A DNA stretch of 64,000 bases from Candidatus Bipolaricaulota bacterium (GCA_040752575.1 JBFMGK010000027.1:90360-154359), one strand, 5' to 3'; counted from the first letter of the stretch, positions 217 to 62,385 are shown. Numbers and translations are program-made. Notes: a model not told the origin generated them from the letters alone.

Positions 217-259
217 AGGCAGGGGAGTGCGGCAAGGGCTGTCGGCGAGGAGGGAGCCA

Positions 260-3200
260 ATGGTTCGACGGGGCGTTGGGCTGGGTTGGATCTTGCTTTC
301 CGTGTGCCTCTTCTCGCTGGTGGCGGGGGCTACGTGCACGACGATCGGGGTGGCTCCGCAGGACGACGATAGCCACGAGGGCCTCTCGTGGGACAACGGT
401 ATGGGCGGGCGCGTGGCGGAGGATGGTGAATGGGCCAGCACGGATCTGAACGGCGACGAACACGAGTTCGACGACTACCCGTTCACGGGGCTCCTTCCCA
501 TCGGAGCCATAATCACCGGGTTCGAAGTGAGGATCCGCGGTTTCAGTAGCGGCGGCCCGGGCTCCGTCCAGGTTGGCCTCTCCTGGGACGGCGGGGGACA
601 GGTCGACAAGCCGGCCGGCGCTTCTCCTTGGACTGTGTCCCTGCCGACCGGCTCTGGAGCGGATGCGACATGGAATAGCGTCGAGATCGAGAATCCGCCG
701 TTCATCCACGAGTTTGCGCGCGCGGAAGTCTGCGGGGGGAACGAAACATTCACTGTCTGGGTGAAGGCCAACGTGGGCGGCGACGCGATCTACGTCGACG
801 CCGTTGAAGTGCGCGTGACGTACTACGACGAGACGGTTCCGCCGTTCACGCCGAACAACCCCACCCCGTCGAGCAGCAGCCACGTGACGGGCACGTGGTA
901 CAACGCGAGCACCCTGCCCGACCCGATGGTGACCGTCGACTGGACGAGTGCCACCGACCGGCCGACCTGCGACAGCGGGATCGACGGGTATCGTGCCATC
1001 TGGGACACAAGTTCCAGCACGAACCTTGGCGCAAGCGACGGCTTCTTCCTTGATGAGGAAGGAGTCCACTCCCAGGACTTCTCGCTCGGCAACGGCCAGT
1101 ACTGGTTCCACATCCGAAGCGTCGACAACGTGGGCAATCTTGCCGATGCAACGTCCCATCTCGGACCGTTCCGATACGACGACTTGTGGCCGACGAACCC
1201 GAACGTCACGAGCACGAAGTCGACCGGCTGGTCGAACACTGCGATCGTGCCGATCGCGGTGAGCGGCGCGAGCGATACGCTATCGGGGATCGACGGCTTC
1301 GCCATCGCGTGGACTCACTCGGGAACGTGGACACCGGATGGGGCGAAGGACCGCGAGGAGGTCTGGGGTGGCGAGACGTTCACAATGGCTGCCGACGGTC
1401 TCTGGTACTTCCACCTGATCGCGGTCGACAACGCCGGCAACTGGGCGGCGGCGGGGTCGGATGTCGAGACCCTGGGGTGGTTCGGCGTGGACACACACGC
1501 CCCGTCCGATCCGACCGCGACCAGCCCAACTCACATCGAGGGCGGGCGATCGAACAACCCGAATGTGCAGATCGGTGTGAGTGGCGCGAGCGATCCGACG
1601 CACGGCGAGCCGGGGTATGAGATGGCGTCGGGTGTGGACGGATTCTCTGTCGGCTGGGACCACAATGCCGCCGGAGTGCCTGACGCGACGAAGGACGAGG
1701 AACAAGGCTGGCCGGGAACGACGTACAACTTGGCCGACGGCACTTGGTACTTCCACCTTCGGACGGTCGACAACGCCGGCAACTGGACGAGCACCGAGAC
1801 CTTTGGGCCGGTCACCATCGATACGGAAGACCCGACGGTGACGACCGTCGTGGCGAGCGACACGCTGATCACGGATGCAGATACCCCAGGCAATGCGACG
1901 TTCACGATCACGGTGGACTTCTCCGAGCCGATGAACACCGGCATTGCACCGTCGCTGTCGTTCAATCCGGCGGTCGCGACGACGCTGACTCTGGACCTGA
2001 CGTCGGGATGGTCGGACTCCGACACGTATGTCGCGCGCTACGACGTCGCGGACGGGAACGCGCGTCTCTTCGACGTTGCGGTGGACGTGTCCGGCGCGCA
2101 AGACGTCGCTGGGAACGAACAGGAGAACTACGCGCCGCAGATTGAGTTTGAAGTGGACACGCTGAATCCGACGGTGTCGAGCGTCGTAGCGAGCGACGCG
2201 TTGATCTCAGACGCGGACACGCCGGGGGACGCGAGCTTCACGGTTACGATCGACTTCGACGACGCGATGAATACGGGCGTCGTGCCAACGGTGTCGCTCA
2301 ATCCAACCGTCGCGTCGACGTTGAGCCTTGACGGGACGTCGGGATGGGCGGACGCCAACACGTACGTCGCTCGGTACGACACGGCCGACGCGAACGTCGA
2401 CGTGGATAGCGTGACGGTCGACGTCAGCGGAGTGCGGGACGCCGCCGGGAACGATCAACAGGACTACACGCCCGTTCACGAGTTTGCGATCGATACGCTC
2501 AACCCGACGGTGAGCATCGGGGCCAATGACGTGGCGATCTACGACGGCGACGTTGGGGTCGACCGGTTCGTGGTGACGGCGACCTACTCGGAGAGCATGG
2601 ATCCCGCGGTGACGCCGTCGCTGGTCTTCCTCCCGGGGATGGCGACAACGTTCACGAACCCGAGTGGGGCGTGGAGCGTCGGCAACACCGTCTACACGTG
2701 GACATATGACGTCGTTGACGACGGTGCAGCCGTGGCGGACATCGACCTCATGGTGTCCGGCGCAGCGGACGTTGCGGGAAACACCCAGATCCTATCCGTC
2801 CGCTCGGACTACATCGACGTGGACTTGCGGAATCCGACGGTCGTGATTGCCGCGAACGATGTGGCGATCTACGACGGTGACGTTGGGGTCGACCGGTTTG
2901 CCGTGACGGCGACGTTCTCCGAAGCGATGAATCCGGCGGTCGTGCCGACGCTGACGTTTACGCCGGCGGTCGCGACGACGTTGACGAACCCGAGTGGGGC
3001 GTGGAGCGTCGGCAACACTGTCTACACGTGGACGTACGACGTGTCCGACGCGGGCGTGACCGTGGCGGATGTGGACGTGACAACCTCCGGCGGACAGGAC
3101 GTAGCGGGCAATGTCCAGGTCTCGAACACGAACACGGACTATGTGGACATCGATACGCAGAATCCCACGGTGGCGAGCGTTGTGGCGAGCGATACGCTGA

Positions 3201-5929
3201 TCACGGACGCGGATACGCCAGGCGACGCGACGTTCACGATCACGGTCGACTTCTCCGAGGCGATGAACACCGGGATTGCGCCGACGGTATCGTTCAGCCC
3301 GGTCGTGGCGCCGACCCTGACGCTGGATGGAACCTCGGGATGGGCGGACGCCGACACGTACGTGGCGCGCTACGACGTCGCGGACGGGAACGTTGACGTC
3401 AACGATGTTGCCGTCGACGTCGCCGGCGCGCAGGATGCGGCCGGGAACGGGCAGCAAGACTACGCGGCGCAGAACGAGTTTGGGATCGACACATTGAATC
3501 CTACGGTGACGAGCGTGACGGCCAGCGACACGCTGATTGCCGACGCGGACGCAGGACAGACGCGCTATGTGACGGCCAACTTCAGCGAGGCCATGGATCA
3601 AGCCGTAACGCCAGTTTTCACTTTCGCTCCGGATGTGGCCTCGACGTTGACGCACACTGGAGGATTGTGGCAGACGACGACGCGCTACCGGGCGTCGTAT
3701 CTGGCCGTCGATGCAGGCGTGGACGTCGACAGTGTGACGGTCGATGTGACGGGAACGAGAGACGAAGCCGGCAACGCCCAACAGGACTACGCGCCGCAGA
3801 ACGAGTTCGCGATCGACACACTGAATCCCACGGTTCTCAGCATCGCGCTGAGCGACAACCTGATCACCGATGCTGACGTCGGCGGAACGTTCACGGTGAC
3901 GATCGACTACAGCGAGCCGATGCAGTCGGGCGTGGCGCCGACCGTGGTCTTTGACCCGGCGCTCGACACGACATTCTCGCTCCTTCTGACAAGCGGCTGG
4001 TCTGACGGCGACACCTACGTCGCGCGATACGCGGTTCTCGACGGCAACGTCACCGTGGACGATGACGACGTGCAGGTGTCGGCGGCAAGGGACTTGGCTG
4101 GCAACGTGCAGATCCCGTCGAGCCTCGACAACGACCTCGACATCGACACCGAGAACCCGATCATCAGCAACTTCGTTGTCACGGGTGGGCCGGTGGGCAC
4201 GAAGAACGGAAACGACTGCGTGCGTGAGGTCACGTTCGTCGCTACGGTGACCGATCCGAACGGCCGCATGGATCCGGGGGACATCGTGATCACGAGCGCG
4301 ACGGTGCCCGCGGGCAATGCGCAGATCGGCGTGCCCTACGACGTGGTTCGCACGGCCGTCGACGTAGATGAAGCGACGATCGAAGGCGTCGTCGACGTGT
4401 ACGACCTGACAGGCTGTCCGGCCTTCCCGCGGATCGTCCTCGATGCGACGGACCTCGTCGGCAACGAGGCAGCCCAAGCGTGGGCGGAGGACGACGTCTA
4501 CGATCTCGTGATCCCGACGATCAACGACTTCACGTTCCACACGGACGATACGTACACGACGACGACCGACGAGTACGAGGTCGACGGGTGCTGTGTGACG
4601 ACCGTCTACTTCTCGGCGAACGTCACGGACAACTGCTGCATCGACGACGGCAACGTTTCGGTCTCGGTTTCGCTGCCGACTCTGAATGCGATCCTTGAGA
4701 ACGTTTGGTGGGAGCCCACGCAGGCGGGGCAGAAACGCGTCGACCTTGTCGGGCACGCCGACGTTCGCTGCGTGACGTCGTGCCCCGCGCGTGTCGAGGT
4801 CGTGATCACGGCCCATGATTGCTGCGGCAACGACGCCGTGCCCGTCACGTCGGGCGCAGGCACGGGGCTCGTGTACGATCGGATGGCTCCGGAGCCCAGC
4901 AACGACCCCGACGGCTACGAGGCGTCGCGCTGTGACGGACTCGAGGTGCGACGCGACAACGATGGTCAGTATCGCCTGATGATTCGCGAGAACACGCCGA
5001 CGTACATCGATGTGCTCTGCAACGACACCGACAACTGCTCGCGTTGCGCGTGCTGCGGAACCCTCTGGATCCACGACATCGTCGAGTATCCGGAGTACGC
5101 CACGTTGACGATCGTCGACGACGAAGGAGACTGCTCCGGGGGAACGAGCCTGCGGTTCGCGCCGGATCGCGGCTATCTAGGCCCCGACCGGTTCACCTAC
5201 CGGATCGTCGATGCGTGCGGGAACATTTCGGACACGGCGACCGCCTACACGGAGACGATCCGCGAGGTGGACGTCGAGGATGTTTTCGCGGTCGGGTGCG
5301 CCGCGAGCGCCATCCGAATCACGGTCGAAGCGACGGACCTGTGGGTCGACCCCGGGTCGCCGGACCTGATCCCATTCGGGTTCTCCATCCTGCAGGATCC
5401 CGCGCACGGGTTGCTCTGGATCGACCCGGCGAGCCTGCGCTACACACCGCCCAGCACGACGGTCGACCCGTTGTACGGCGTAGTCCCCACGATGACGTTC
5501 ACGGAGTCGGCCGCGATCGACCTTGTCTACACGCCGGCGGCGGATTTCGAGGGGAGAGATGCCTTTCGCGTGCTGTTCAGCGATCCCTACGGCGGACGTA
5601 CGGTGGGGCGCGTCGACGTAGCCGTGACGCCGTGCGGATCGGGCGAGGGAACCATGCCGGGGCTGGAGGTGTCGCGCGGGCGGTCGCTGGCCCTCATCAT
5701 GCCGTTGAGCTTCGATCCCAACCGCGAGAGTGGCATCCTCCTGGTCTCCTTGGAGGACGGCATGCCGTTCGCGGCGGGGGTCGAGACAACCTGGAGCGAA
5801 CGGGTGGGCCGGACGATGGTCTGGGTGGACGCGTCCGAGGTTCCGGAGGGAGACTATCGGCTGGAGCTGCCTCTTGGCAACGGCGAGGTCGTAAGCGTTA
5901 CGATCGCGGTGGTAGGGGAGGGCGAATGA
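260..5929 (+). CDS. Giant secreted Ig-like repeat surface protein / adhesin (~1,889 aa)
   Basis: ATG 260 follows GGAGG (249-253); hydrophobic signal-like N-terminus; 3 repeats with [W/Y]-[Y/W]-FHxxxVDNxGN; 7 Ig-like repeats delimited by DTxNPTV with D(A/V)AGN motifs; cadherin/tandem-95-like domains (GPDRFTYRIVD, YTPAADFEGRDAF); very acidic, Thr/Val/Asp-rich. Confidence 0.9.
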   Translation: MVRRGVGLGWILLSVCLFSLVAGATCTTIGVAPQDDDSHEGLSWDNGMGGRVAEDGEWASTDLNGDEHEFDDYPFTGLLPIGAIITGFEVRIRGFSSGGPGSVQVGLSWDGGGQVDKPAGASPWTVSLPTGSGADATWNSVEIENPPFIHEFARAEVCGGNETFTVWVKANVGGDAIYVDAVEVRVTYYDETVPPFTPNNPTPSSSSHVTGTWYNASTLPDPMVTVDWTSATDRPTCDSGIDGYRAIWDTSSSTNLGASDGFFLDEEGVHSQDFSLGNGQYWFHIRSVDNVGNLADATSHLGPFRYDDLWPTNPNVTSTKSTGWSNTAIVPIAVSGASDTLSGIDGFAIAWTHSGTWTPDGAKDREEVWGGETFTMAADGLWYFHLIAVDNAGNWAAAGSDVETLGWFGVDTHAPSDPTATSPTHIEGGRSNNPNVQIGVSGASDPTHGEPGYEMASGVDGFSVGWDHNAAGVPDATKDEEQGWPGTTYNLADGTWYFHLRTVDNAGNWTSTETFGPVTIDTEDPTVTTVVASDTLITDADTPGNATFTITVDFSEPMNTGIAPSLSFNPAVATTLTLDLTSGWSDSDTYVARYDVADGNARLFDVAVDVSGAQDVAGNEQENYAPQIEFEVDTLNPTVSSVVASDALISDADTPGDASFTVTIDFDDAMNTGVVPTVSLNPTVASTLSLDGTSGWADANTYVARYDTADANVDVDSVTVDVSGVRDAAGNDQQDYTPVHEFAIDTLNPTVSIGANDVAIYDGDVGVDRFVVTATYSESMDPAVTPSLVFLPGMATTFTNPSGAWSVGNTVYTWTYDVVDDGAAVADIDLMVSGAADVAGNTQILSVRSDYIDVDLRNPTVVIAANDVAIYDGDVGVDRFAVTATFSEAMNPAVVPTLTFTPAVATTLTNPSGAWSVGNTVYTWTYDVSDAGVTVADVDVTTSGGQDVAGNVQVSNTNTDYVDIDTQNPTVASVVASDTLITDADTPGDATFTITVDFSEAMNTGIAPTVSFSPVVAPTLTLDGTSGWADADTYVARYDVADGNVDVNDVAVDVAGAQDAAGNGQQDYAAQNEFGIDTLNPTVTSVTASDTLIADADAGQTRYVTANFSEAMDQAVTPVFTFAPDVASTLTHTGGLWQTTTRYRASYLAVDAGVDVDSVTVDVTGTRDEAGNAQQDYAPQNEFAIDTLNPTVLSIALSDNLITDADVGGTFTVTIDYSEPMQSGVAPTVVFDPALDTTFSLLLTSGWSDGDTYVARYAVLDGNVTVDDDDVQVSAARDLAGNVQIPSSLDNDLDIDTENPIISNFVVTGGPVGTKNGNDCVREVTFVATVTDPNGRMDPGDIVITSATVPAGNAQIGVPYDVVRTAVDVDEATIEGVVDVYDLTGCPAFPRIVLDATDLVGNEAAQAWAEDDVYDLVIPTINDFTFHTDDTYTTTTDEYEVDGCCVTTVYFSANVTDNCCIDDGNVSVSVSLPTLNAILENVWWEPTQAGQKRVDLVGHADVRCVTSCPARVEVVITAHDCCGNDAVPVTSGAGTGLVYDRMAPEPSNDPDGYEASRCDGLEVRRDNDGQYRLMIRENTPTYIDVLCNDTDNCSRCACCGTLWIHDIVEYPEYATLTIVDDEGDCSGGTSLRFAPDRGYLGPDRFTYRIVDACGNISDTATAYTETIREVDVEDVFAVGCAASAIRITVEATDLWVDPGSPDLIPFGFSILQDPAHGLLWIDPASLRYTPPSTTVDPLYGVVPTMTFTESAAIDLVYTPAADFEGRDAFRVLFSDPYGGRTVGRVDVAVTPCGSGEGTMPGLEVSRGRSLALIMPLSFDPNRESGILLVSLEDGMPFAAGVETTWSERVGRTMVWVDASEVPEGDYRLELPLGNGEVVSVTIAVVGEGE
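1820..4144 (+). repeat. Seven tandem 327-336-bp intragenic Ig-domain repeats
   Basis: Unit starts at 1820, 2156, 2492, 2822, 3152, 3488, 3815; near-identical DNA such as ACGAACCCGAGTGGGGCGTGGAGCGTCGGCAACAC at 2654 and 2984. Confidence 0.9.
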
Positions 5930-7419
5930 ACCGCTGGGTGAAATGGGCCGTGTTGTTTGTCGCCTTGGGATGCGTCAGGTGCAACGCACTGGCGAACCAG
6001 ACCCCCGAGCTACCCGACGCTGTCGTGACGGTCGTACAGGACCGTCCCGAACTTGTGCGCATGGCCGCGAGCGATGCGGACCTCGACCCCATGGATCCCC
6101 AAGCTCACCCGTTGCGGTTCGTACTTCTCGAGGGTCCGACTCACGGGGCGCTGGTCGGAGACCTCGACGCCGTTTCGTACGCCCCCCCGCACGAGGCGTG
6201 GATTGAGCTGACCTACGTCCCGGCAGCCGCGTTCGTCGGAAGGGATGCCTGGACCCTTGTCGTTGTCGATTCGCTGGGTGCGGCGTCTCGCGTCGCCACG
6301 ATCGCGGTCGACGTCGTCAGAGGGCGTGCCGAAGGTCTTCTCGCCGGGACGTGGGATGCCGAGTTCACGTTCAACGTGCAGTCGGCGTCGCTGGTCGCGC
6401 TGAGCCAGCGGATCACCGAGGTCTACCGCGTGGGCGGTCTCACGCTGAGCGGGACGGCGCAGTTCAACCTCGAATCTCCCGGAGGGGTCCAGACGGTAGT
6501 CTTTGACGCGCTGCGGTTCGACTCCGATCTACGCGTAGGCGACCTTGATGCGCGGGCTACCCTGGCTTTCGATCCCCAAGGCGCGAGCGCAGCGGACCTC
6601 TTCGACTACTTGTCGACGAACCTCTCGGCCGAGTTTCTGGGTGTCTCGCTCGCGCACTCGCTCTTCCTCACTCGTCCGCAAACGGCGTCCTATCAGACGC
6701 TCACAGCGTCGGCCGTCCTCTTGGGCGTCAGTGTCTCAAGTACGGTTCGGCTGGCCCTCGACGATGCGTGCGGCTTCGTGTTCTCGCGGAGCGATCTCGG
6801 GGCATCGTGGGCTTGGTGCGACGTTGGGCTGCACGCGGCCCTAGGCTTCGCCGACACGGGATTCGACGTTCTGAGGTTTTCCGCCTATGGAATCGCGCTT
6901 CCCGAGGTGGCGTGGCTTCCCCGTGCCGTCACGTTGAACGCGACGCTGACCTTCGCCGTCGACCAGAAGTCCCTCGACGGTGAACTGGAGTGGACCCCGA
7001 TTCGTGGCGCGTGCCTGCGTCTGTTGGCGGAGCTGGTCACATCGGGTGGAGGCCTCATCGGCGAGGGCGTGACACTGTATGGCCTGGTTCTCGATTGCCA
7101 AATCGGCGACGTGCGCGTGCGCTCCGCGACGTCGCTCGATCCGGGGAAGAACGCCGAGGTCACGGGCCAGATCGACTACTTCGAGTCCCTCACGATCTCC
7201 GGAACGCTCACATCCTGTTGTGGCATCCCCGGGACGTGGAGCGTGGCGACGTACTTTGCCCACGCTTCGACGCAGTTGTTCGACTGGGGCATGCTGCTTG
7301 CGAAGGCCGACGTCGCTCTTTCCGAGCACGTCAGCTTCCGCCTCGACGTAGTCTTCCGATCGGGCGACTTCGGCGATCCGACGTCGGAGTTCACGGTAGG
7401 GTGGGCCGTGCGCTGGTAG
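5926..7419 (+). CDS. Signal peptide + Ig/cadherin-like domain + predicted outer-membrane beta-barrel (~497 aa)
   Basis: ATGA overlap with the upstream stop; signal peptide MNRWVKWAVLFVALG; many alternating amphipathic strands; ends FTVGWAVRW with a terminal aromatic residue (beta-signal-like). Confidence 0.75.
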   Translation: MNRWVKWAVLFVALGCVRCNALANQTPELPDAVVTVVQDRPELVRMAASDADLDPMDPQAHPLRFVLLEGPTHGALVGDLDAVSYAPPHEAWIELTYVPAAAFVGRDAWTLVVVDSLGAASRVATIAVDVVRGRAEGLLAGTWDAEFTFNVQSASLVALSQRITEVYRVGGLTLSGTAQFNLESPGGVQTVVFDALRFDSDLRVGDLDARATLAFDPQGASAADLFDYLSTNLSAEFLGVSLAHSLFLTRPQTASYQTLTASAVLLGVSVSSTVRLALDDACGFVFSRSDLGASWAWCDVGLHAALGFADTGFDVLRFSAYGIALPEVAWLPRAVTLNATLTFAVDQKSLDGELEWTPIRGACLRLLAELVTSGGGLIGEGVTLYGLVLDCQIGDVRVRSATSLDPGKNAEVTGQIDYFESLTISGTLTSCCGIPGTWSVATYFAHASTQLFDWGMLLAKADVALSEHVSFRLDVVFRSGDFGDPTSEFTVGWAVRW

Positions 7420-8102
7420 TGGCGCCGTCCGCCTCGCGATCGAGAAGCCAAATCGGGTCGCCACCCGCGGGGCGGACGCGAGATGCAGGCAGGTCCTCAC
7501 CGTCGCGTAGCCGCCGCACGACGCTCGCTTTCTCTGCCCCGACGACGAGGAAGACGACGCTCTCCGTGGCATCCAGGCGAGGGATCGTCAGCGTGACGCG
7601 CCACTCAGGCTCCGCCGGAGCATGCACGGGCAGCACGAACCTGCGCTCCTCGCGCAAAGCCTGCTGCCGCGGGAACAGCGACGCGGTGTGGCCGTCGGTT
7701 CCGACGCCCAGGAAGCACAGATCGAGGCGCTCGCCGGCGCCGAGCAGGCACCGCAGATCCTGCTCCGCCCGGTCCGCTGCGTCGACCGGGTCAAGCTCGC
7801 CGAGGAACCGATGGACGTTTTGGCGCGGGATCGGGACCTCGTCGAGGAGAGCGCGGCGGATGGCCCCGAAGTTGCTCTGTGGCGAGTCGGCAGGGACGCA
7901 TCGCTCATCGGTAAGCAAGATGTGCGTCGCCTGCCAGTCGATGGGCGACGCAGCAATCCTCCGGTACGCTTCGAGCGGCGTCCGTCCTCCGGCGAGCGCG
8001 ACGATGAAGCGGCCTCGCGCGGCAATGGCGCGGCGGGCGCAGTCGACGAACAGGCGGGACGCCTCTTCAGCGACCTGGGGCGGGCCGGGCAGGACGATGG
8101 CG

Positions 8103-8110
<8 letters not shown>
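7391..8110 (-). CDS. pgl: 6-phosphogluconolactonase
   Basis: ALAGGRTP, DERCVP, LGVGTDGHTASLFP, RVTLT motifs; follows zwf. Confidence 0.93.
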
Positions 8111-9522
<1,412 letters not shown>

Positions 9523-9551
<29 letters not shown>

Positions 9552-10443
9552 GTCCCCCAAACTCCCCGCGGAGCGCGGCGACAAGCCTCGCCGCGAAGTC
9601 CTCCCCGTCTCGACTGGCGATCCTTGTGAGGAGCGCGCCCGTGATGATCGGGGCGGCCACGTCGGCGGCGATGGCCTCGGCGACCGTCCACCGCCCCTCG
9701 CCGCTGTCCGCGACCCACGGCGCGACGCTGGAGAGCGCCGGGTCGCGCGACAGCGCGCCGACGACGAGTTCGAGAAGCCACGACCGGACGACGCTTCCGC
9801 GCCCCCACAGGTCCGCAATGGACCGAAGGTCCAGGTCGAACTCGCGCTTCTTCCGCAGAAGGGCGAACCCCTCGGCGTAGGCCTGCATCAGGCCGTATTC
9901 GATGCCGTTGTGGACCATCTTCACAAAGTGGCCCGCTCCGGAGGGGCCGACGCGGCGCCAGCCGAGGCGGCCGCCTGCCGCCAGCGCGTCGAACCACGGA
10001 GAGAGAGGATCGACGTCCTCCTTTCGGCCCCCGACCATGAGGCAGTATCCCTGGCTCTCGCCGGCGACTCCTCCGCTTGTCCCCACGTCGACGAAGCCGA
10101 CCCCGCGAGCCGCGAGGGCCGCGTGGCGAGCCTGGGAGTCGCGGTAGAACGAGTTTCCACCGTCAACGACGACATCGCCCGGGGAGAGGAGGGGTCCCAG
10201 GTGAGTCGTCGCGGCATCGGTTGGCTCGCCGGCGGGGAGCATGAGCCACACGCAGCGCGGGCTCGGAAGACGAGCCATGACGTCTTCGAGATCCGTGGCC
10301 GGCTCGATGCCCCGTACTTCGGACGCCAAGCGGATGGAGACGTCCGGCGACCGATTCGTGACGACAACGTGGAACCCTGCGCGCGCTGCGCGTCGGGCGA
10401 TGCCGGATCCCATTCTTCCCAGGCCGACCACGGCGTGGTTCAT
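9523..10443 (-). CDS. gnd: 6-phosphogluconate dehydrogenase, decarboxylating (short form)
   Basis: GLGRMG, DGGNS, DVGTSGG, GAGHFVKMVHNGIEYG, DSGEGRWT, FGGH. Confidence 0.94.
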
Positions 10444-12080
10444 CGCGCCTCCTGTCTCGGGGGACGCCGCGCATACGAAGCCAGGACTTCGTCCAGCGCG
10501 GCGGCGGGGTCGCCGCCAAGGTCGTAGCTCTCGACGCGACGACCGCGAGCCCTAAGGGTTGCCGCGTCGCCGAACGCTTGGCAGAGCAAGGCGTCGGCGA
10601 GCCGCTCCCGACCCGACGGTCCTGGAGCATCGAGCGGATCTTCCGTGGCGTCGACGAGATGCACGAAGATCCCGCGGCCCGCGTCTCCCTTGTGGAGTTG
10701 GCCGGTCGAGTGGAGATACCGCGGCCCGAATCCCAGCGTCACCGCGCAGCCCGTCGCGTCGCGCAGCTGCCCCTGCAGTGCTCGCAGGCGCGCCTCGACG
10801 GCGGGCGACGGATCGAGGAACGCAAGGAGTGCAACGTAGTCCCCGACCTTCGCTGAAGCGACCTGACGGTCGAGCTCTTCGCGCGTGAGCGCCCGCCGCG
10901 TCTCCGCCGGGCGACGGCCCGACCTGCGCAGCTCCTCGAGAAGCCGGCGAGTCTCCGTCTTGGCTGACTCGACGTCGGGCTGGTTGAAGGGGTGGATCCC
11001 GAGGACATGACCGGCGATCGCCGTGGCGAACTCGGCGAGGAAGAAGATGCGTCCGAACTCGGGAGCGTCGCGATCGTCCAGGGTGAGCGCGGGGTGCCCG
11101 CCCAAAGCGAGGTCCTCGCTGCGCCGTTCTTCAAGGGGCGAAAGAGAGAGAAAGAGGCGATCGCGTCCGTAGGCCGATGCGGGAGCCAAAGGCTCGCCGA
11201 CGACGGGCAGGATGCCGCGTCCCGATTTGCCCGTGCTCTCCGCGATCAGCTGCTCGATCCAGTCCGCGAGCCCGGCGAGGTCAGGCGGCGCTTCGATCGT
11301 TAGCTTGTCGCGCCCGCCCATGGCTTGGGCGGCGAGCGACGCGCCGAGCCAGGCGCCGCGGTTATCCTGGGGAGATAGGTCCGGCGAGCACGCCGCGGCA
11401 GCCCCGCGAGCCGCGTGGAGCAGGGCTTCGAGGTCGATGCGCAGGAGAGCCCCCGGCACGAGACCTACGAGAGAAAGCGCGGCGTATCGCCCCCCGACGT
11501 TGGGGTCATTGAGGAACGTGCGACGGTAGCCGCGGGCCGCCGCCCACGCGACCAACGGACTGCCGGGGTCGGTGATCGCGACGAACCGACGTCCGGCATC
11601 GCGAGGCCCCAGAACGCCGTCCGCCTGCTCCTGGAAGTAGCGCGCAAGGGTCAGCGTCTCGCTTGTCGTCCCGGACTTCGTCGAGACGACGAACAGCGTG
11701 CGCTGCAGGTCGATCGACGCTGAGACGCGGCGCACGGCACTTGGATGCAGGGTGTCGAGGACGTGGAGCCGAGGCGCGCCTCGGTCGGGAAGACCGGCTC
11801 GCGCCATGGCGTCCGGTGCGAGACTGGATCCTCCCATGCCGAGCAGGACGACGTCGTCCAATCCCTCGCTGCGGGCCTCGTCCGAGAAGTCGCTGAGCTC
11901 GGCCAGGTGCGTGGCCATCGTGTCCGGAAGACGCAACCACCCGAGGCGGTCGACGATTTCGTTGGGGATCGGCGACCAGAGGCGGTGATCTCCGGCCCAG
12001 AGACGCGCGATGACGTTGTCGCGTTCCAGGGCGCAGAGAACGTCACGAAAGCTCTGCGTCGCATGCTTGCCGTCTTCCAT
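10440..12080 (-). CDS. pgi: Glucose-6-phosphate isomerase (type resembling the PGI half of Tal/Pgi fusions)
   Basis: LGMGGSSL, STKSGTT, ITDPGS, GGRY, EQLIAESTGK, FNQPDVESAK, GPRYLHSTGQLHKG; AGGAGG RBS before ATG 12080. Confidence 0.85.
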   Translation of the reverse strand: MEDGKHATQSFRDVLCALERDNVIARLWAGDHRLWSPIPNEIVDRLGWLRLPDTMATHLAELSDFSDEARSEGLDDVVLLGMGGSSLAPDAMARAGLPDRGAPRLHVLDTLHPSAVRRVSASIDLQRTLFVVSTKSGTTSETLTLARYFQEQADGVLGPRDAGRRFVAITDPGSPLVAWAAARGYRRTFLNDPNVGGRYAALSLVGLVPGALLRIDLEALLHAARGAAAACSPDLSPQDNRGAWLGASLAAQAMGGRDKLTIEAPPDLAGLADWIEQLIAESTGKSGRGILPVVGEPLAPASAYGRDRLFLSLSPLEERRSEDLALGGHPALTLDDRDAPEFGRIFFLAEFATAIAGHVLGIHPFNQPDVESAKTETRRLLEELRRSGRRPAETRRALTREELDRQVASAKVGDYVALLAFLDPSPAVEARLRALQGQLRDATGCAVTLGFGPRYLHSTGQLHKGDAGRGIFVHLVDATEDPLDAPGPSGRERLADALLCQAFGDAATLRARGRRVESYDLGGDPAAALDEVLASYARRPPRQEAR

Positions 12081-23615: not shown

Positions 23616-25550
23616 ATGCGGTTGCGGGCGCAGATGCTGCTCGGGACGGCAGCGATCAGTGCCGTCGTGGTCGTGACGCTGCTGGGCATCGTGGCGCCGC
23701 GCCTCGAGCAGTCCTTTGCCGCCCTCGAGTACGGGGCCGTGCGACAGGACCTCGCGCGGGCGACGAACGCAATCCGCGCCGAATTAGCAGCGCTGCAAGG
23801 AACCGCCGAGGACTGGGGGGCGTGGGACGACACGGTCGCGTTTGTCCGCGGCCAGGCTCCTGACTACGTCGAGCAGAACCTCATGCCGTGGTCGATGGAG
23901 AATCTGCGACTCGACTTCATGGTCTTCTACGATGAGGCAGGGCGTCGCGTCCTTGCTCGCGGATTCGACGCCGCAGAGGCCGCGATCGCCGAGGTCGGCG
24001 AGCCGACCCTTAGCGCACTCGGACGCGTTCTCGAATCCCTACGCGCCGAAGCGATCGAGAGCGCGGCGGAGCTGGTGGATCTCGGCGGGGAGTTCGCCCT
24101 TGTTGCGTTCACGCCGATTCTAGACAGCGAGCAACGTGGGCCGAGTGCAGGAACCGTCGCGCTCGGGCGTCTCTTGACGGTGGGGAGTCTTGCCGACCTT
24201 GCGTCCCAGGTGCAGCTTCCGCTGTCGATCCGTTCGTTGGAATCCGACGTCGTTCCGCCGTCCGCCGGCGACCAACTGGCACGCGAGGGTTTCGCCGTCG
24301 CGCCGCTCGACGAGCGGGTGATCGCGGGCTACGCGCTCTGGCCGACGAGGACCGGTGCCCCTGCTGTCGTGAGTTTCGCCACGCCTCGGACCATATTCCA
24401 AACCGGGCAGCGAACGGTGCGAGTCCTGATGGCGAGCCTTCTTGCCATCCTCGTGGCGACCGCCGTCGGCTTCCTGCTCTTCCTGCGTTCGAGAATCCTC
24501 TCGCGCACCTCGGGCTTGGCTGCGGAGGTTGGGAAGATCGCCGCGTCCGGCGATCGCAGCGGGCGCGTCAGTGTCTCCGGCCAGGACGAGCTGGCCGACC
24601 TTGGACGCCAGATCAACGGGATGCTCCGTGCCCTTGAGGCATCGAACGCCGCCCTCGAGCGGAGCGAGGGGCGGTACCGCAATCTCTTCGAGTCATCGCG
24701 CGATCCCATCTACATCACAACTGCCGACGGGGCGTTCGTCGACGTCAACCGGGCGCTGCTTGACCTATTCGGCTACGCCAAAGAGGAACTGAAGACGCTC
24801 TCGGCGGCTTCGCTCTACGCGCGCGTCGAAGACCGCGAGGCGTTTCGCGCCTTGATCGACGAGAAGGGGTTCGTCGCGAACTACCCCGTGAGTCTCCGGA
24901 AGAAGGATGGAACTCACGTCGAGTGCCTGCTGACGACGATCGCTGAGGAGGCTCCAGGCGGTTCCGGACGACACTATCAGGGGATCCTCCGCGATGTCAC
25001 CGAGATCCTCCGCCATCAGGAACGGCTCACGTACCTCGCGACGCATGACCCGCTCACCGGGTTGCTGACGCGAGGTGCGCTCGATGACGTCCTCCAGCTT
25101 GAGATCGCGCGTGCGATGCGCAATCTGGAACGACTGGCCGTGTTCTACCTCGACCTCGATCGATTCAAGGCGATCAACGACACGCACGGGCACGCCGCAG
25201 GCGACCGTCTCCTTCAGGATGTTGCGCAGCGTCTCCGGGCGTCGCTTCGCGCAAGCGATGCGGTCGCGAGGCTTGGCGGCGACGAGTTCGTAGCGCTTCT
25301 TCCCGGCATCGACTCGCCGCGCGATGCGGAGATCGCAGCGGAGAAGGTGGTACGGGCCTTGCGCGACGCGTTCCGCATCGATGGGGAAAAGCTAGACCTC
25401 TCGGTCAGCATCGGGATCGCGCTGTGCCCTGACGACGGAGAGAGCCCGATCCGCCTCCTCCAGAGGGCCGACGCCGCGATGTACTCGGTGAAGGGATTGG
25501 GGCGCAACGGCTGGAAGCGATGCAGCGCTTCAGACGGCTCGCCCTCATGA
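23616..25550 (+). CDS. Membrane diguanylate cyclase (CHASE4-like, HAMP, PAS, GGDEF)
   Basis: Two TMs flanking a DWGAWDDT sensor; DELADLG HAMP; PAS; HDPLTGL, DLDRFKAINDTHGH, RLGGDEF; RxxD I-site (RASD). Confidence 0.93.
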   Translation: MRLRAQMLLGTAAISAVVVVTLLGIVAPRLEQSFAALEYGAVRQDLARATNAIRAELAALQGTAEDWGAWDDTVAFVRGQAPDYVEQNLMPWSMENLRLDFMVFYDEAGRRVLARGFDAAEAAIAEVGEPTLSALGRVLESLRAEAIESAAELVDLGGEFALVAFTPILDSEQRGPSAGTVALGRLLTVGSLADLASQVQLPLSIRSLESDVVPPSAGDQLAREGFAVAPLDERVIAGYALWPTRTGAPAVVSFATPRTIFQTGQRTVRVLMASLLAILVATAVGFLLFLRSRILSRTSGLAAEVGKIAASGDRSGRVSVSGQDELADLGRQINGMLRALEASNAALERSEGRYRNLFESSRDPIYITTADGAFVDVNRALLDLFGYAKEELKTLSAASLYARVEDREAFRALIDEKGFVANYPVSLRKKDGTHVECLLTTIAEEAPGGSGRHYQGILRDVTEILRHQERLTYLATHDPLTGLLTRGALDDVLQLEIARAMRNLERLAVFYLDLDRFKAINDTHGHAAGDRLLQDVAQRLRASLRASDAVARLGGDEFVALLPGIDSPRDAEIAAEKVVRALRDAFRIDGEKLDLSVSIGIALCPDDGESPIRLLQRADAAMYSVKGLGRNGWKRCSASDGSPS

Positions 25551-26810
25551 AGCCGGGTCGCGCGCCAGCGCTGCGGCGAGCGCGGCGGCCAACACGGACG
25601 ACGAATCACGTCGGCGTTCGAGTCGCCGCTTCTCGCGGCGAAGGGCCCGGAATCCGAACGGCGAGTGGGCCTCGAGCCGGCGGACGCAGTCCGGCGTGAA
25701 CTGCCGTGGCGCCGCGGCGACCGCGCCGAGGATGATCTGGAGACTGGCTCCCCGTAGGAGATCTGCCAGCGCCGCGGCGGCAGGCGCCTCGTTGGGGCGA
25801 AGCTGCTCAAGGACCCAGGCGCGGAAGTGCAGAAGCCGGAAGACCAGCCGATCGAGCGGCCAGCGACCGAGGAGTTGGGAGAACACGGTCAGCATTCCGC
25901 AACGCGCGTCTTCTGCCGCATCCTGCAGATCGTCGGCCAGCTGGAGGAGAGCGCCGAGGCTGAAGAAAAGCGAGACGTTTGCTTGGGAGAGGTCGCCGGC
26001 CACGAGGTAGCCGTCGGCGAGAACCGAGGCCCCGCCCTTCTCGAGACTGATGCCGAGGACGTCGATGCCATATGGAGGCTCGTCGCGTTCCAGGAGCGAC
26101 AGACTCCGTGCCTGAGCTGAGTGGATCACGGCAAGGCTCTCGTAGACGCGGGGGACCTCGGCCCGCACGTGCTCGGACTCGACCTCGGCGACGAGACGCC
26201 AGAGGTCGGTCTCGACCTGGCTCTCGGGGGGCAGAGGGTCGCCGGCCAGACGTCGGCCGAAGCGCTCGCCAAGACGCACCTTGTCGAGCTCACGAACCGT
26301 GGGATCGTCGAGCAGATTGTCCGTGAGCGGGTACAGCATGCTGTACGCGAAGACCGACGGAGTGACCCGGAGCGGCAGCCCAAGCATGACTTGAAGCCCG
26401 TTCATGGTCCAGACGTTTCGGCTGGCCTGGAAGATCTCGTCGAGCGGCATCGAGGGCGCGAACTCGCGCGCCCGCCGAGCGAACTCGGTCGCGCAGGTCG
26501 CGAAGCCCCCGTGGAGAAGAAGGTCCACGTGTGCGTCGCTCGCGCCGAGCGACGCGCGAGCGAATGCCCTGCCGGAGAGAGAGAGGCGTCTCTCTGCAGC
26601 GCGACGCTCGTCGACCGTCGTCGGCGGATGCTGGGCCTCTTCGAGCAACTCGTCGACCAGGAGCCGCAGTTCGCGCTCCCGGCGTCGCTGCTCGCAGCGC
26701 GCATACGTTCGGGGTAGCTCCGGAAGGCGTGATGTCCCGCGCCACCAAGCCTCCGCGCACGCGGCGGCGCACTCTTGCGATAGGCGCCCCACGGGGGTGT
26801 TCTCAACCAT
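25545..26810 (-). CDS. Class I isoprenoid-synthase-fold protein of unknown product
   Basis: Two Asp-rich motifs, YPLTDNLLDD and LQLADDLQD, with LEKGG between them; all-helical character; extended -10 TGnTAGACT at 26851-26859. Confidence 0.65.
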   Translation of the reverse strand: MVENTPVGRLSQECAAACAEAWWRGTSRLPELPRTYARCEQRRRERELRLLVDELLEEAQHPPTTVDERRAAERRLSLSGRAFARASLGASDAHVDLLLHGGFATCATEFARRAREFAPSMPLDEIFQASRNVWTMNGLQVMLGLPLRVTPSVFAYSMLYPLTDNLLDDPTVRELDKVRLGERFGRRLAGDPLPPESQVETDLWRLVAEVESEHVRAEVPRVYESLAVIHSAQARSLSLLERDEPPYGIDVLGISLEKGGASVLADGYLVAGDLSQANVSLFFSLGALLQLADDLQDAAEDARCGMLTVFSQLLGRWPLDRLVFRLLHFRAWVLEQLRPNEAPAAAALADLLRGASLQIILGAVAAAPRQFTPDCVRRLEAHSPFGFRALRREKRRLERRRDSSSVLAAALAAALARDPAS

Positions 26811-26962
26811 CGTCAACCTCCGGCTTGCGACGTTCGCGCGTCGCGACCGGAGTCTAACACGACGAGCCAAGGCTGGCGGCACGGGGCAGCCGGGTCTTGC
26901 CGCGCGAGATCCCTCTCAGCGTTGCCGTGGCGCGGCGGACCACCCACCGGGGCCTTGGCGAT

Positions 26963-52222: not shown

Positions 52223-52227
52223 GGCAC

Positions 52228-54339
52228 TCACCTCCGAGTGACGACGAGCGTCGACGCGCCCGTCGGCACTTCGACGCAGACGATCTCGCCTCGCTCTACG
52301 GTCCGCAGAGGATGGCCGGACGCGTCGGCGACGTGGAGCGGATCAGGCGAGAAGAACGAGAACCAGTCTCGGCTTGCCTCGACGTGGATGTGCCAGGCGC
52401 CGTTCGTCGACGCGTGCTGCAGAGAGCCGACGGGCGCAGGGACTAGCTTGTCGAGGAAGCCGAGAGGAACGATGCCGTGGGCGCTGGGTGCGTACATCAT
52501 GTAGGCGACTTGTCCCGGAGCCAGGCGTCGAAACGTCGATTCGACGGTGCGGCCGGCGAGGACATCCCATGCCAGCGTCTCGGCGTCCGGACGCGGGAGC
52601 TCGAGGTCGGCCGTTCGATCGCTGGCATTCATCGCCCACACGTACTCCCAACGCGCCTCTCCCGCGAGGCGCTCGGTGCGGTAGACCTCGACGGGGCCTC
52701 CGAGCGTTGGCGTGTCGGGCATCGGCGGCGCGTCCGGGTGCAGAAGAACCCCGCGGGACGAGATCAACGAAGACACGAGCGCCGGGTCCGTCATCCCCGG
52801 GCCGTCTCCAATCCCGACAGGCCCGCAAGAGAGGGCACGCAGCGCGGCCTCGATGCGCGGCTCGGCTCCCCCGAGTCCAGGGTGAGCGCGCGAGAGGAAG
52901 AGGTCGTGGAATGGAAGAAGCCCCAGAGCGTAGAGCGCTGCGCCGACGAGGGCGTTCTGCCGCCGCAGGTGCCGCCGCTCCATCGCATCGCGGCGGAAGC
53001 CCGGATGCCCGAGGTTGGCGAGAGTCTCCAGCGCCTCTGGCTGACCGAACAGGTAATCGATGGCTGTGCGTGCCGCGAGGGCGTTCGGCATCTGGGTCGA
53101 GGCAAGGGCCATCCCCATCGTCTGCATGCACAACACCAAGCTCAGGCCCTGTCGGTGTAGTGCGCCGGCCATGTCCGAGAACCATCGATCGGCATGAACG
53201 GAATCGCTCCGCAGGGCGGAAGAGAGGTGCTGCTGCGTGCGAAGCCAGTCGTGCCACGCGGCACAGCCACCTTGGCGCGAGATTTCGGCCGCAACGTCTG
53301 TGTAGAAGTCAGCATCTCCGCCCTTCGCGCGGTAGCCGTTGTCTGCGGCCAGCGCGGAGAGGTGAAGCACGAAGCTCACGTCAAAGCGTCTTCCGAGGTC
53401 GGCAAGACCCCCTGCATACTTGGCCGGGTCCGGAGCGAATTGCACGGCTTGGCCGATCTCTCGGTAGGGGTACCAGAGGTCCAGACCCACGTACCCGATG
53501 GGGATGCCCATGCCGCGGAGCCCGGCGAGAACCTCGGCCAGGTGGTCCGCACCGAGTGGACGGATGGGCTCAGTGTAGTAGCCGCCGTAGGCATTCCACC
53601 ATCCCAGCGCGGACGTCGCCACGCTGGCCGCGGCGTCGGGGCGGCGCTTCCCGCCTTGTTGAAGAAGGGCATCCCCGAGCTGCAGGAGTGCCGCGGCGAC
53701 GTCATCGCCGCCGGCGCAAACGGTCTCGAGGATCGTCCCGGCGGGAAGCGATCCGATGGCTCCGTGCAATGCGCGCGCCGCACCACCGGGTGCGCGGACC
53801 AGAGGGCTCGTGAGAAACTGACTGGAGGGCGAGACGGCCAGCGCGCCACCCTCACCGTAGAGGACCAGGGGGGCGAACGCCTCCCTGGGCAGAGAGCCCG
53901 GCCCCCGGCCGCAGATCCCTGCGGGCCAGTATCCACCGAGCGATCCATCACCCGAGGATCCGAGCCCGTACGTGAAGGCGAGAAAGGCGGTTCCGGCAGC
54001 GAACTGGAACCGGGGCGCCGAGACGAGCGAGGTCTCGAAGGAGTCGTGGGTGGCCAGGTCCGAGACCGGCTCTTCGAGCACAACGCGGATCCAGACGACA
54101 TCGCCGCATGTCTCGACTTCCTGACGCGCTACGGGTTGCGTGCCCGCGGTCCAGGTTCTCTGGACGACACTCCGAAGCCCGCCGGCCCCCCGACCGATTG
54201 CGTGCTCCCAGGGTGAGGCCCGCAACGTCGTCTCTTGGTCGGCGCTCTGTCCGAACGAGACGGCGAGATCGCGAATCGCAACGCCGCCGCGCGCAATCGA
54301 CAACTCCCCGGAAGCGTCGATCCGCGCGGACAAGGTCAT
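52228..54339 (-). CDS. Uncharacterised glycoside-hydrolase-like protein (GH-D clan / raffinose-synthase-like features)
   Basis: Position in the sugar operon; LGWWNAYGGYY, YVGLDLWY, RALSCGPVGIGD resembling GH36/Sip1-type motifs; ATGA-coupled to the ROK gene. Confidence 0.5.
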   Translation of the reverse strand: MTLSARIDASGELSIARGGVAIRDLAVSFGQSADQETTLRASPWEHAIGRGAGGLRSVVQRTWTAGTQPVARQEVETCGDVVWIRVVLEEPVSDLATHDSFETSLVSAPRFQFAAGTAFLAFTYGLGSSGDGSLGGYWPAGICGRGPGSLPREAFAPLVLYGEGGALAVSPSSQFLTSPLVRAPGGAARALHGAIGSLPAGTILETVCAGGDDVAAALLQLGDALLQQGGKRRPDAAASVATSALGWWNAYGGYYTEPIRPLGADHLAEVLAGLRGMGIPIGYVGLDLWYPYREIGQAVQFAPDPAKYAGGLADLGRRFDVSFVLHLSALAADNGYRAKGGDADFYTDVAAEISRQGGCAAWHDWLRTQQHLSSALRSDSVHADRWFSDMAGALHRQGLSLVLCMQTMGMALASTQMPNALAARTAIDYLFGQPEALETLANLGHPGFRRDAMERRHLRRQNALVGAALYALGLLPFHDLFLSRAHPGLGGAEPRIEAALRALSCGPVGIGDGPGMTDPALVSSLISSRGVLLHPDAPPMPDTPTLGGPVEVYRTERLAGEARWEYVWAMNASDRTADLELPRPDAETLAWDVLAGRTVESTFRRLAPGQVAYMMYAPSAHGIVPLGFLDKLVPAPVGSLQHASTNGAWHIHVEASRDWFSFFSPDPLHVADASGHPLRTVERGEIVCVEVPTGASTLVVTRR

Positions 54340-61446: not shown

Positions 61447-61671
61447 TTACGCCGAGGGTTTCTCGCGGTAGACGGCCAACGCGATGTCCGGACACGTGAG
61501 GGCGCAGAATGCGCAGCCGACACAGCTTTCGGGTTTCGCGACGCATACGGTGTCGTATCCGCTCTGGTTCAGGGTTCCCGAGAGCGCGAGCACGTGCTGC
61601 GGGCAAGCCGCAATGCACAGCCCGCATCCCTTGCACCGCTCGACGTCGACGACGACCAGACCGCGCGCCAT
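61447..61671 (-). CDS. 2x[4Fe-4S] ferredoxin-like delta subunit
   Basis: CKGCGLC...CP and CVGCAFC...CPD. Confidence 0.92.
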
Positions 61672-61705
61672 TCGACCTCCTCTTGTCTCTTGCGTCCGCG
61701 CCGTG

Positions 61706-62161: not shown

Positions 62162-62175
62162 GCGGGAGACCTCGG

Positions 62176-62367: not shown

Positions 62368-62385
62368 CCCGGTTCACCTCGTTCT

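Follow-up and report, generated by a model that had tools for sequence, protein, structure and literature searches.

A translationally coupled Ig-repeat giant and Omp-beta-like barrel in Candidatus Bipolaricaulota: a candidate cargo-barrel pair of a toga-like outer membrane

Introduction

How do cells that lack lipopolysaccharide (LPS) and are enclosed in a sheath, such as Bipolaricaulota, Thermotogota and other deep-branching Terrabacteria, place large proteins on or through their outer membrane? The question is raised by two adjacent genes at positions 260 to 7,419 of a 64,000-nucleotide stretch of DNA (the window) from a Candidatus Bipolaricaulota bacterium (GCA_040752575.1, JBFMGK010000027.1:90360-154359): open reading frame (ORF) A, which encodes a giant secreted protein of immunoglobulin (Ig)-like repeats, and ORF B, which encodes a putative outer-membrane beta-barrel. 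A preliminary description, made from the sequence alone, proposed that the two genes form a lineage-specific surface-display system outside the two-partner, T11SS and T9SS type-B classes. We present here a reading to which we give a probability of about 0.5, namely that ORF A and ORF B are a lineage-specific, co-translated cargo-barrel pair that would anchor or export the cargo at a toga-like outer membrane.

Published work, in the parts that concern the cell envelope, describes Bipolaricaulota as LPS-less with a Thermotoga-like sheath, and excerpts of a preprint on the first isolate of the phylum report a Gram-negative cell with a toga bearing a hexagonal surface array (bioRxiv 10.1101/2025.11.21.689855). 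According to excerpts of Witwinowski et al. (bioRxiv 10.1101/2021.05.31.446380), the OmpM-like tether of Bipolaricaulota is split between an SLH protein (Omp-alpha) and an adjacent barrel (Omp-beta), while passages from Sexton et al. (bioRxiv 10.1101/2022.09.22.508938) state that the barrels of Thermotogae, except BamA, have no homologues in other phyla. Literature full text, including text of the isolate preprint, yielded no description of a cargo-barrel pair or of the barrel family treated here.

Results

Organisation of the gene pair

The window (G000:C27:90360-154359) belongs to a genome, G000, assembled to 2.16 Mb in 78 contigs, with 65.8% GC and 94.7% completeness; all of the genomes compared are assemblies of the metagenome-assembled genome (MAG) type. 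The elements of the pair are listed below, with positions in nucleotides (nt) of the window, lengths in amino acids (aa) and the basis of each entry in brackets.

248..256, + strand: Shine-Dalgarno-like GAGGAGGGA (stretch GAGGAGGGAG), just 5' of the ATG of ORF A at 260 (read directly)
260..5929, + strand: ORF A (P0001), the cargo, a secreted, very acidic Ig-repeat protein of 1,889 aa (translation; GC content at third codon positions, GC3; homologues)
5926..5929, + strand: ATGA start/stop overlap, translational coupling (junction sequence GAATGAAC)
5926..7419, + strand: ORF B (P0002), an outer-membrane protein of 497 aa (translation, homologues, model)

Both ORFs are real genes and not shadow frames of high-GC DNA, since ORF A has a GC3 of 0.83 and homologues exist for both. 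The ATGA coupling to a 497-aa signal-peptide protein, claimed in the preliminary description, can be read directly at 5926-5929, where the ATG of ORF B and the TGA of ORF A share 4 nt.

Conservation of the cargo-barrel pairing

We counted the adjacency of cargo and barrel genes from both sides; the counts come from related genomes and are hence not independent. Starting from the barrel, a large same-strand ORF ends 0-553 nt upstream in 17 of the 20 fetched loci. These upstream ORFs measure 594-2,043 aa as translated, four of them being cut by contig ends, and all 17 match ORF A, ten through to its C-terminus and seven in the Big_9 region only. In genome G001 cargo and barrel are 1,106 nt apart and an Ig ORF of 291 aa intervenes. 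Starting from the cargo, a profile of its 380-aa C-terminal module (A5) gave 20 near-full-length matches including the window, and a barrel gene lies directly downstream on the same strand in 19 of them. Adjacency, on which the preliminary description had staked its proposal, is accordingly conserved in both directions. Furthermore, a 4-nt ATGA/GTGA overlap is available at 19 of the 22 cargo-barrel junctions (18 of 21 without the window's own), the remainder being two gaps of about 110 nt and one longer gap, which argues for 1:1 co-production of the two proteins. The cargo gene is retained upstream of orthologous barrels whether these have 0, 1 or 2 Ig domains.

A second cargo-barrel set is present in the same genome, for which the preliminary description had suggested a search for paralogous pairs. 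This set (locus L008, C43:8143-15153, − strand) comprises an 824-aa FG-GAP repeat protein, then a 1,146-aa Big_9/HYR/cadherin-like protein, and, 7 nt after the latter, a bare and very divergent barrel of the ORF B family.

Two further observations concern this family. The possibility that the N-terminal domains of the barrels always mirror the neighbouring cargo is ruled out by a DUF11-barrel in genome G039. Separately, locus L059 (G001:C1:1624500-1637500) contains an open frame of 3,283 aa (1229-11077) that runs from a giant protein through to a family barrel with no stop between them; two hydrophobic segments, the second of them signal-peptide-like, and a small beta domain lie between the giant part and the barrel, and either the two are naturally fused in this frame or the assembly has lost the stop codon that separated two genes.

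ORF B as a predicted 22-stranded outer-membrane barrel

The segments of ORF B are as follows.

5926..5994, + strand: signal peptide, about aa 1-23, MNRWVKWAVLFVALGCVRCNALA (sequence; helix at residues 2-22 in the model; predicted cleavage)
5995..6330, + strand: Big_9/cadherin-like Ig domain, aa 24-135 (sub-threshold Pfam match, model, VIA; presumably on the periplasmic side)
6331..7416, + strand: 22-stranded beta-barrel, aa 136-497, ending in W (DSSP on the model, VIA, family searches)

The preliminary description had seen likely amphipathic strands in the last ~360 aa, ending in W; that part stands, as the barrel occupies residues ~136-497 and the protein ends in GWAVRW, but the first ~110 mature residues form an Ig-like domain, for which a Big_9 match is found at residues 24-121 (E 6.5e-4, below the Pfam cut-off) and is precomputed on most homologues. 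An AlphaFold2 model built from a 62-sequence alignment, with a mean predicted local distance difference test score (pLDDT) of 90.6 and a predicted template modelling score (pTM) of 0.66, begins with a signal helix and an Ig domain of seven strands (32-131), which a link of 6 residues joins to 22 strands at 138-496. The leading Foldseek matches of this model are all outer-membrane barrels. In an exhaustive VIA search the top ranks were taken by 22-stranded TonB-dependent transporter barrels (Z 18.0-19.2 over 319-336 residues, root-mean-square deviation (rmsd) 4.1-4.7 A, model range 136-497), followed by ushers with 24 strands (Z 13-15, rmsd 5.7-7.7 A) and MtrB (14.4), with 16- to 19-stranded porins, VDAC and Tom40 lower (at most 14, ~240 residues aligned); the Ig domain matched the cadherin-like module of SraP at Z 9.6. 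The partner therefore models as a membrane barrel, as had been proposed.

The details of the model are consistent with this assignment. The alternation of hydrophobicity along the strands, expressed as a mean difference, is 2.56 in the barrel versus 1.31 in the Ig domain, and the strand connections span 2-14 residues, the even-numbered ones mostly 2 and the odd-numbered ones 4-14. No loop is long enough to constrict the lumen, and no plug sequence is present. Short even-numbered turns together with the terminal W correspond to the canonical topology, from which we infer that both termini, and so the Ig domain, face the periplasm. As modelled, ORF B combines the features of an outer-membrane beta-barrel and substrate of the beta-barrel assembly machinery (BAM), namely a signal peptide, an even strand number, short periplasmic turns, a C-terminal aromatic residue and a BamA in the genome.

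The invariant cysteines of ORF B are at residues 282, 298, 363 and 431-432, including a vicinal CC in the motif CCGxPGxW, and conserved CC pairs occur also in the cargo module, at ORF A residues 1444-1445, 1459-1460, 1521-1522 and 1598-1599. With the topology proposed above, the barrel cysteines would lie near periplasmic turns, and disulfide formation or metal binding are candidate roles in the envelope of this anaerobe. A cargo-specific role of these barrel cysteines is ruled out, as they are equally invariant in the bare paralogues.

ORF A as a giant acidic protein with a constant C-terminus

The segments of ORF A are as follows.

260..334, + strand: signal peptide, about aa 1-25, MVRRGVGLGWILLSVCLFSLVAGA (sequence; predicted cleavage site)
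335..1819, + strand: variable N-terminal region, aa 26-520, with WYFH..VDNAGNW-type domains (weak Pfam/NCBIfam matches; relatives differ)
1820..4144, + strand: seven tandem Ig-like repeats of ~110 aa, aa 521-1295, each beginning D[TL]xNPTV (repeat starts, DNA repeat)
4499..5926, + strand: conserved Cys-rich C-terminal module, aa 1414-1889 (CC-motif domains, two Big_9-type domains, final ~90-aa beta domain)
5270..5629, + strand: penultimate Big_9-type domain, aa ~1671-1790 (homologous to the Ig domain of ORF B; hhalign, blastp)

ORF A was initially described as a 1,889-aa protein with a signal peptide and without a C-terminal transmembrane (TM) segment, LPxTG, SLH, RTX or autotransporter barrel, and translation, motif search and Pfam/NCBIfam scans agree with each of these points. 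Hydrophobic 19-mers occur at the N-terminus only (positions 4-13), neither an LPxTG nor a GGxGxD motif was found in the sequence, and the Pfam and NCBIfam scans (E<=1) gave no SLH, RTX, autotransporter, two-partner secretion (TPS) or type IX secretion system (T9SS)-tail match; no peptidoglycan-binding domain was found in the same two databases. The only matches from these collections are Big_9 (E 1.1e-7), a sub-threshold OmpL47-type match and weak tandem-95 matches. The protein is extremely acidic, with 285 D+E versus 67 K+R. Such acidity, combined with cadherin-like repeats, is typical of extracellular adhesins.

The N-terminal region, to which the OmpL47-type match (E 7.6e-9, below cut-off) and a Big_13 match belong, differs among relatives in length and Pfam content. 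Repeat starts follow at aa 521, 633, 745, 855, 965, 1077, 1186 and 1296, with a DNA tandem repeat of period 330 at 2531-3141 and a weak Big_12 match in the repeats. The C-terminal module accounts for most of the cysteines, as 18 of the 24 fall at aa 1444-1792 and 20 at aa 1320-1792, several of them as vicinal CC pairs, and the invariant and near-invariant columns of a 56-sequence alignment cluster at aa 1415-1884. Searching with the last 390 aa (aa 1500-1889) returned 110 proteins including the query, that is, 109 other homologues; 55 of these are 1,044-2,377 aa long and share 38-57% identity over 82-100% coverage, while the Pfam domains at their N-termini differ. Pfam gave no significant match for the CC-rich domain, the transition domain or the last 90 aa, and the ESM Atlas, queried with the C-terminus, contained no structure of it and offered Big_9/cadherin leads only, all under 0.9. 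By alignment, the C-terminal module of ~470 aa is the constant part of the cargo and the N-terminus its variable part; a variable N-terminus joined to a module conserved to its last residues is the pattern of a sorting or anchoring module.

A 760-aa open frame also runs antisense inside ORF A (window 2792-5074, − strand) and is probably a shadow frame of the high-GC coding strand.

Homology between the barrel's Ig domain and the cargo

The penultimate domain of the cargo and the Ig domain of ORF B are homologous: a profile-profile comparison (hhalign, A1 vs A5) gave a probability of 99.4%, E 1.2e-21 and 32% identity, and blastp matched the same domain pair at E 1.2e-9. The barrel Ig domains of 17 or more other genomes match cargo profile positions ~160-286, which correspond to this penultimate domain; generic Big_9 proteins match instead the first Big_9 domain (profile positions ~66-160). 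This homology fits either a homotypic contact between the two proteins or a shift of the gene boundary within an array of Ig domains.

The barrel family and its relation to the toga

ORF B has 86 homologues besides itself, all unnamed or labelled 'hypothetical' or 'Ig-like', whose sources are named Ca. Bipolaricaulota, Acetothermia and, once, Atribacteria. The barrel part alone has no relative by sequence in Pfam, NCBIfam or the PDB, where only noise was returned (E 0.31 and 1.2). A barrel-only profile (A4, 43 sequences) recovered 788 clusters at E<=1e-3 among 1.84 billion representatives, and 119 of the 151 genomes sampled from the phylum match the family, usually several times. Searching with ORF B for related loci gave one locus, in a MAG titled 'uncultured Thermotogae bacterium', and searching with protein P0234 gave none. 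By these searches the barrel represents a family without annotation whose members occur mainly in Bipolaricaulota. Of the 150 matches listed, 149 have the barrel at the C-terminus and one, P0331, has it at residues 47-395 of a total of 744; the N-terminal extensions among these matches measure 0, ~135, ~235, ~347 and up to ~585 aa, and those sampled are Big_9 or DUF11/DUF7507 domains. Six members are encoded in G000 itself: besides ORF B, contig C75 carries three bare copies in tandem, and C43 and C5 carry one each.

The setting of the bare members suggests what the family does elsewhere in the phylum. Bare barrels lie directly 3' of the sole SLH gene in G086 and G039 and 2.5 kb away from it in G001; the barrel of G086 (G086:C1:246692-247768, after the SLH gene at 245993) is matched by the profile of ORF B homologues at E 1.2e-37, likewise the one on G039:C3, and overall the ORF B barrel is homologous to the SLH-adjacent bare barrels at profile E 1e-35 to 1e-40. 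The SLH gene product is Omp-alpha-like, with ~200 aa, an SLH domain, a coiled coil and a C-terminal TM segment. A same-strand member of the barrel family lies downstream of 11 of the 30 sampled SLH loci. Within the window's own taxonomic family this rises to nine of the nine SLH loci that have at least 937 nt of room downstream; the other five loci of that family end too early, and most of the misses are in other families. By position, the family is the Omp-beta-like toga barrel of the phylum, because its bare members follow the SLH gene as in the published split tether, and its genes are presumably those of Witwinowski et al.

ORF B itself is found between ftsZ and pgl/zwf and not beside an SLH gene, the SLH gene of G000 being on contig C15. 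In a maximum-likelihood tree of 43 barrels with midpoint root, the SLH-adjacent and other bare barrels group together, and ORF B falls in a 35-row group composed almost wholly of barrels with a large upstream gene, the split having a support of 89/87 (not starred). ORF B is accordingly placed in a separate, cargo-paired clade and would be a specialised paralogue of the toga barrels. In this respect the earlier proposal of a lineage-specific system needs to be modified: the pair is conserved and bears no signature of a known class, yet its barrel is not an orphan invention but belongs to a multi-copy, Omp-beta-like family.

The tandem bare barrel genes of G000 (locus L009, C75:437-4483) encode ~340 aa mature proteins, two of them nearly identical, and fill their 5-kb contig. 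The single gene for an SLH, coiled-coil and C-terminal TM protein lies 300 nt from the end of C15 (C15:1-1000), and the ends of C15 and C75 share a short repeat that is present too at the ends of C7, C20, C33 and C78. A C15-C75 join, which would place Omp-alpha next to Omp-beta, is plausible but unproven.

Outer-membrane inventory of the genome

In G000, searches with positive controls turned up no LpxC, OEP/TolC, secretin, TamB, ShlB, usher or TonB-dependent barrel, and the outer-membrane barrel families detected there are one BamA-like gene and six Omp-beta-like genes only. Of the T9SS, Bam and two-partner genes named as relevant in the preliminary description, Bam is present as this BamA-like gene and ShlB was not found; for T9SS, the SprA_N search is blank in G000 and equally in all 14 control genomes.

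Comparison with known systems

Among the closest known systems is the split Omp-alpha/Omp-beta tether of Thermotogae, which has been described for Bipolaricaulota too: the ORF B barrel is homologous to the SLH-adjacent barrels of the latter phylum, and the outer membrane would be of the toga type without LPS genes. ORF B differs from these barrels in lying away from the SLH gene, in having an Ig domain, in being coupled to a giant Ig-repeat protein and in falling in a separate clade.

In its layout the pair resembles type V systems (Va and Vb), in which a large repeat passenger is made 1:1 with a barrel whose coding sequence follows on the 3' side, a variable passenger being joined to a conserved barrel-proximal module; the family members with one to five N-terminal domains and a C-terminal barrel also share the domain order of classical autotransporters. 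However, ORF B has 22 predicted strands instead of 12 or 16, ORF A and ORF B have separate signal peptides, and the link from the Ig domain to strand 1 of ORF B, at 6 residues, is too short to cross the membrane. With regard to two-partner secretion (Vb), ORF B has no POTRA, POTRA_2, ShlB or Omp85 match at E<=1, neither ORF A nor its N-terminal 494 aa has a haemagglutination-activity/TPS match, and the only Omp85 found is the BamA-like gene 12 kb upstream; the lack of recognisable POTRA and TPS domains had already been noted, and the Pfam/NCBIfam scans are indeed blank for both. The gene order likewise recalls T9SS type-B cargo with PorP/SprF, in which a cargo-specific barrel gene lies directly 3' of a large Big_9/cadherin-type surface protein, and the conserved C-terminal beta domain of the cargo could serve as a pairing element; in contrast to that system, no Por_Secre_tail, CHU_C or PorP_SprF match was obtained in ORF A, its last 90 aa (E<=10) or ORF B, and the lineage lies outside Bacteroidota. 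In line with the preliminary description, the partner is therefore not a standard TpsB or PorP by sequence and model, given its 22 predicted strands and the lack of any such family match.

Other wide barrels offer structural parallels. Chaperone-usher systems (PapC/FimD) pass Ig-fold units through a wide barrel gated by its own Ig-like domain and are matched at Z 13-15, but ushers have 24 strands, an internal plug, N- and C-terminal domains and a chaperone, and PF00577 is unmatched in G000 and in ORF B. TonB-dependent transporters, the best structural match, have a globular N-terminal domain directly before a 22-stranded barrel, but in ORF B an Ig domain sits where the plug would be, the loops are very short, no Plug or TonB_dep_Rec match exists and some orthologues have no N-terminal domain at all. 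Slam proteins of the type XI secretion system (T11SS) differ in that ORF B lacks a DUF560 or TPR match and has 22 strands instead of 14.

LapA-type adhesins are giant proteins kept at the cell surface by a folded terminal module that is unable to pass the pore. The cargo recalls them as a giant acidic Ig-repeat protein that might be retained in its pore in the same way, although LapA has its retention module at the N-terminus and leaves through the TolC-like pore of a type I system, whereas here export would be by Sec, the module is C-terminal and no OEP/TolC was found in G000. By sequence and predicted strand number, then, the pair is none of two-partner, T9SS type-B/PorP, Slam, usher or TonB-dependent receptor. 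The nearest functional analogues of the pair would be an autotransporter divided between two genes or an adhesin held back in its pore, and its modelled structure is like that of a TonB-dependent transporter in which an Ig domain has taken the place of the plug.

Discussion

The conserved adjacency, the overlapping junctions and the separate clade of paired barrels suggest to us how the two proteins might work together as an anchoring or export pair. This reading is favoured as well by the constant C-terminal module of the cargo, by the homology of its penultimate domain to the barrel's Ig domain, by the confident model of a plugless 22-stranded barrel, by the second pair on C43, by the acidity and cadherin-like repeats of the cargo, and by a genome with BamA in which none of the other outer-membrane export families searched with working controls was found. 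BamA would insert ORF B as a very short-looped barrel of 22 strands, from which the N-terminal Big_9 Ig domain would hang into the periplasm. ORF A would leave the cytoplasm via Sec, and its Cys-rich C-terminal module would dock on the barrel, probably through the penultimate Big_9 domain, and perhaps fill the wide barrel lumen. The acidic N-terminal Ig repeats could then thread outward through the barrel, forming a surface layer or a rod-shaped adhesin that projects from the cell, with the bulky C-terminal module acting as stopper and anchor at or in the pore. In this scheme the cargo is predicted to bind the barrel, to pass through it and to be exposed on the surface.

A stronger version, which we put forward tentatively and to which we give a fair chance, though well below even, is that diderms with a toga and without LPS have, in this pair, a new class of machinery for exporting proteins across the outer membrane and anchoring them there, in which an Omp-beta-family barrel with an Ig 'receptor' threads a Sec-exported Ig-repeat giant and retains it by its C-terminal stopper. 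If this were true, an export system would have evolved from a structural toga porin and not from Omp85, and the pair would do the work carried out elsewhere by type I, V and IX systems. In either version, the conserved coupled pair is a concrete and testable candidate for how LPS-less sheathed cells handle large surface proteins, and it would illustrate the recruitment of a structural porin family for protein display. Since the first cultured member of the phylum has been reported, tests by proteomics and cryo-electron tomography are feasible.

Several observations weigh against an anchoring or export pair. Bare members of the barrel family follow an SLH gene or stand alone, so that the ancestral role of the family is likely to have been structural or porin-like. 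The Ig domain of the barrel occurs in 0-2 copies within the cargo-paired clade, with extensions of 0 to ~585 aa in the wider family, so that it cannot be an obligatory receptor or plug, and the pTM of only 0.66 leaves the placement of the Ig domain under or inside the barrel unfixed by the model. The pairing has exceptions: three barrels without a partner (G060, G034 and G135, which form one small divergent clade), a cargo homologue without a partner on G101:C47, where no ORF occurs in the 486 nt before the contig end, and the DUF11-barrel of G039, which has no large upstream gene. No fused cargo-barrel protein of more than 870 aa was found, which is weak evidence. Finally, among the 18 largest open frames of G000, ten other giant secreted-looking proteins (a DUF11/CARDB protein of 4,627 aa, a Big_3_5/TSP3 protein of 2,091 aa, an alpha-2-macroglobulin, three beta-helix proteins, a PKD-subtilase, a sortilin/BNR protein, a CARDB protein and a PKD protein) lie beside no member of the barrel family, indicating that giants of this genome evidently do without a barrel as a rule and that the barrel is specific to Big_9-tailed cargo and not a general exporter.

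The main rival, which we regard as unlikely, is a periplasmic tether or scaffold, in which the giant stays on the periplasmic side of the outer membrane, held through its C-terminal module by the barrel's rim or periplasmic Ig domain, and its rod of Ig repeats bridges or arranges the broad periplasmic space separating toga from cell body, beside the short Omp-alpha-like SLH protein. Since the barrel's Ig domain is periplasmic by its predicted topology and homologous to the penultimate domain of the cargo, the simplest contact between the two proteins would indeed be periplasmic; yet barrel-only orthologues keep the pairing. A rod of this kind would suit a phylum described, in the published passages available, as carrying a toga-like sheath, and a cell whose Omp-alpha-like protein has only ~200 aa, but the length of the cargo (1,044-2,377 aa) and its N-terminal domains vary among close relatives, which better fits exposed, diversifying surface proteins than a spacer of fixed length, and no peptidoglycan-binding or SLH domain match is present in the cargo. 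No recognised translocon was found in G000, and the pair stands directly after ftsW-murC-ftsA-ftsZ and 12 kb from bamA, both of which favour this rival; the extreme acidity and the cadherin-like repeats, being typical of adhesins, point the other way.

We consider it quite unlikely that ORF A and ORF B are only loosely linked neighbours, with ORF B as a further toga porin or structural barrel that gained its Ig domain from the adjacent Ig-repeat gene by gene fission or domain shuffling, and a cargo that is independent of it and takes another route to its place. The family is multi-copy and mostly bare or stand-alone, among the N-terminal extensions of its members, which measure anything from 0 to ~585 aa, there are DUF11 domains besides Big_9 ones, and both the solitary DUF11-barrel of G039 and the other giants without barrels would be expected on this account. 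Nevertheless, an adjacency of 19/20 and 17/20 across genera, with a 4-nt overlap at 19/22 junctions, would be hard to maintain without selection for joint production; moreover, the conserved part of the cargo is the C-terminus, encoded next to the barrel gene, and the paired barrels form a clade of their own.

That the pair is a divergent member of a described system (two-partner, T9SS type-B, Slam/T11SS, chaperone-usher or TonB-dependent receptor) is very improbable, for although the cargo-beside-barrel gene order recalls these systems and residues 136-497 superpose on TonB-dependent transporter (Z 18-19) and usher (Z 13-15) barrels, neither ORF A nor ORF B shows a family signature at E<=1 to 10, searches of G000 gave no ShlB, usher or TonB-dependent barrel, the barrel has no sequence relative in the PDB, and it is predicted to have 22 strands, against 16 in TpsB and 24 in ushers.

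Genomic setting and other features of the window

Upstream of the pair lie bamA (POTRA + Omp85, 12 kb upstream), an OmpH-like gene and fabZ, then ftsW, murC, ftsA and ftsZ, which the pair directly follows; the 3' neighbours are the convergent pgl and zwf. No chaperone gene was found among the genes flanking the pair, and a promoter and terminator scan gave nothing usable. Elsewhere in the window, two well-coded ORFs of 445 and 485 aa with a GC3 of ~0.8 (25548-26882, − strand, and 61484-62938, + strand) match no Pfam family at E<=1e-5. At 49319-54339 (− strand) a gene encodes a 971-aa GH57 enzyme with a C-terminal Glucodextran_C (SLH-like binding) module; it comes after a gene for a 703-aa protein without a Pfam match and before a sugar ABC transporter and two alpha-amylase-family genes, and this cluster is probably a toga-bound starch-degrading set.

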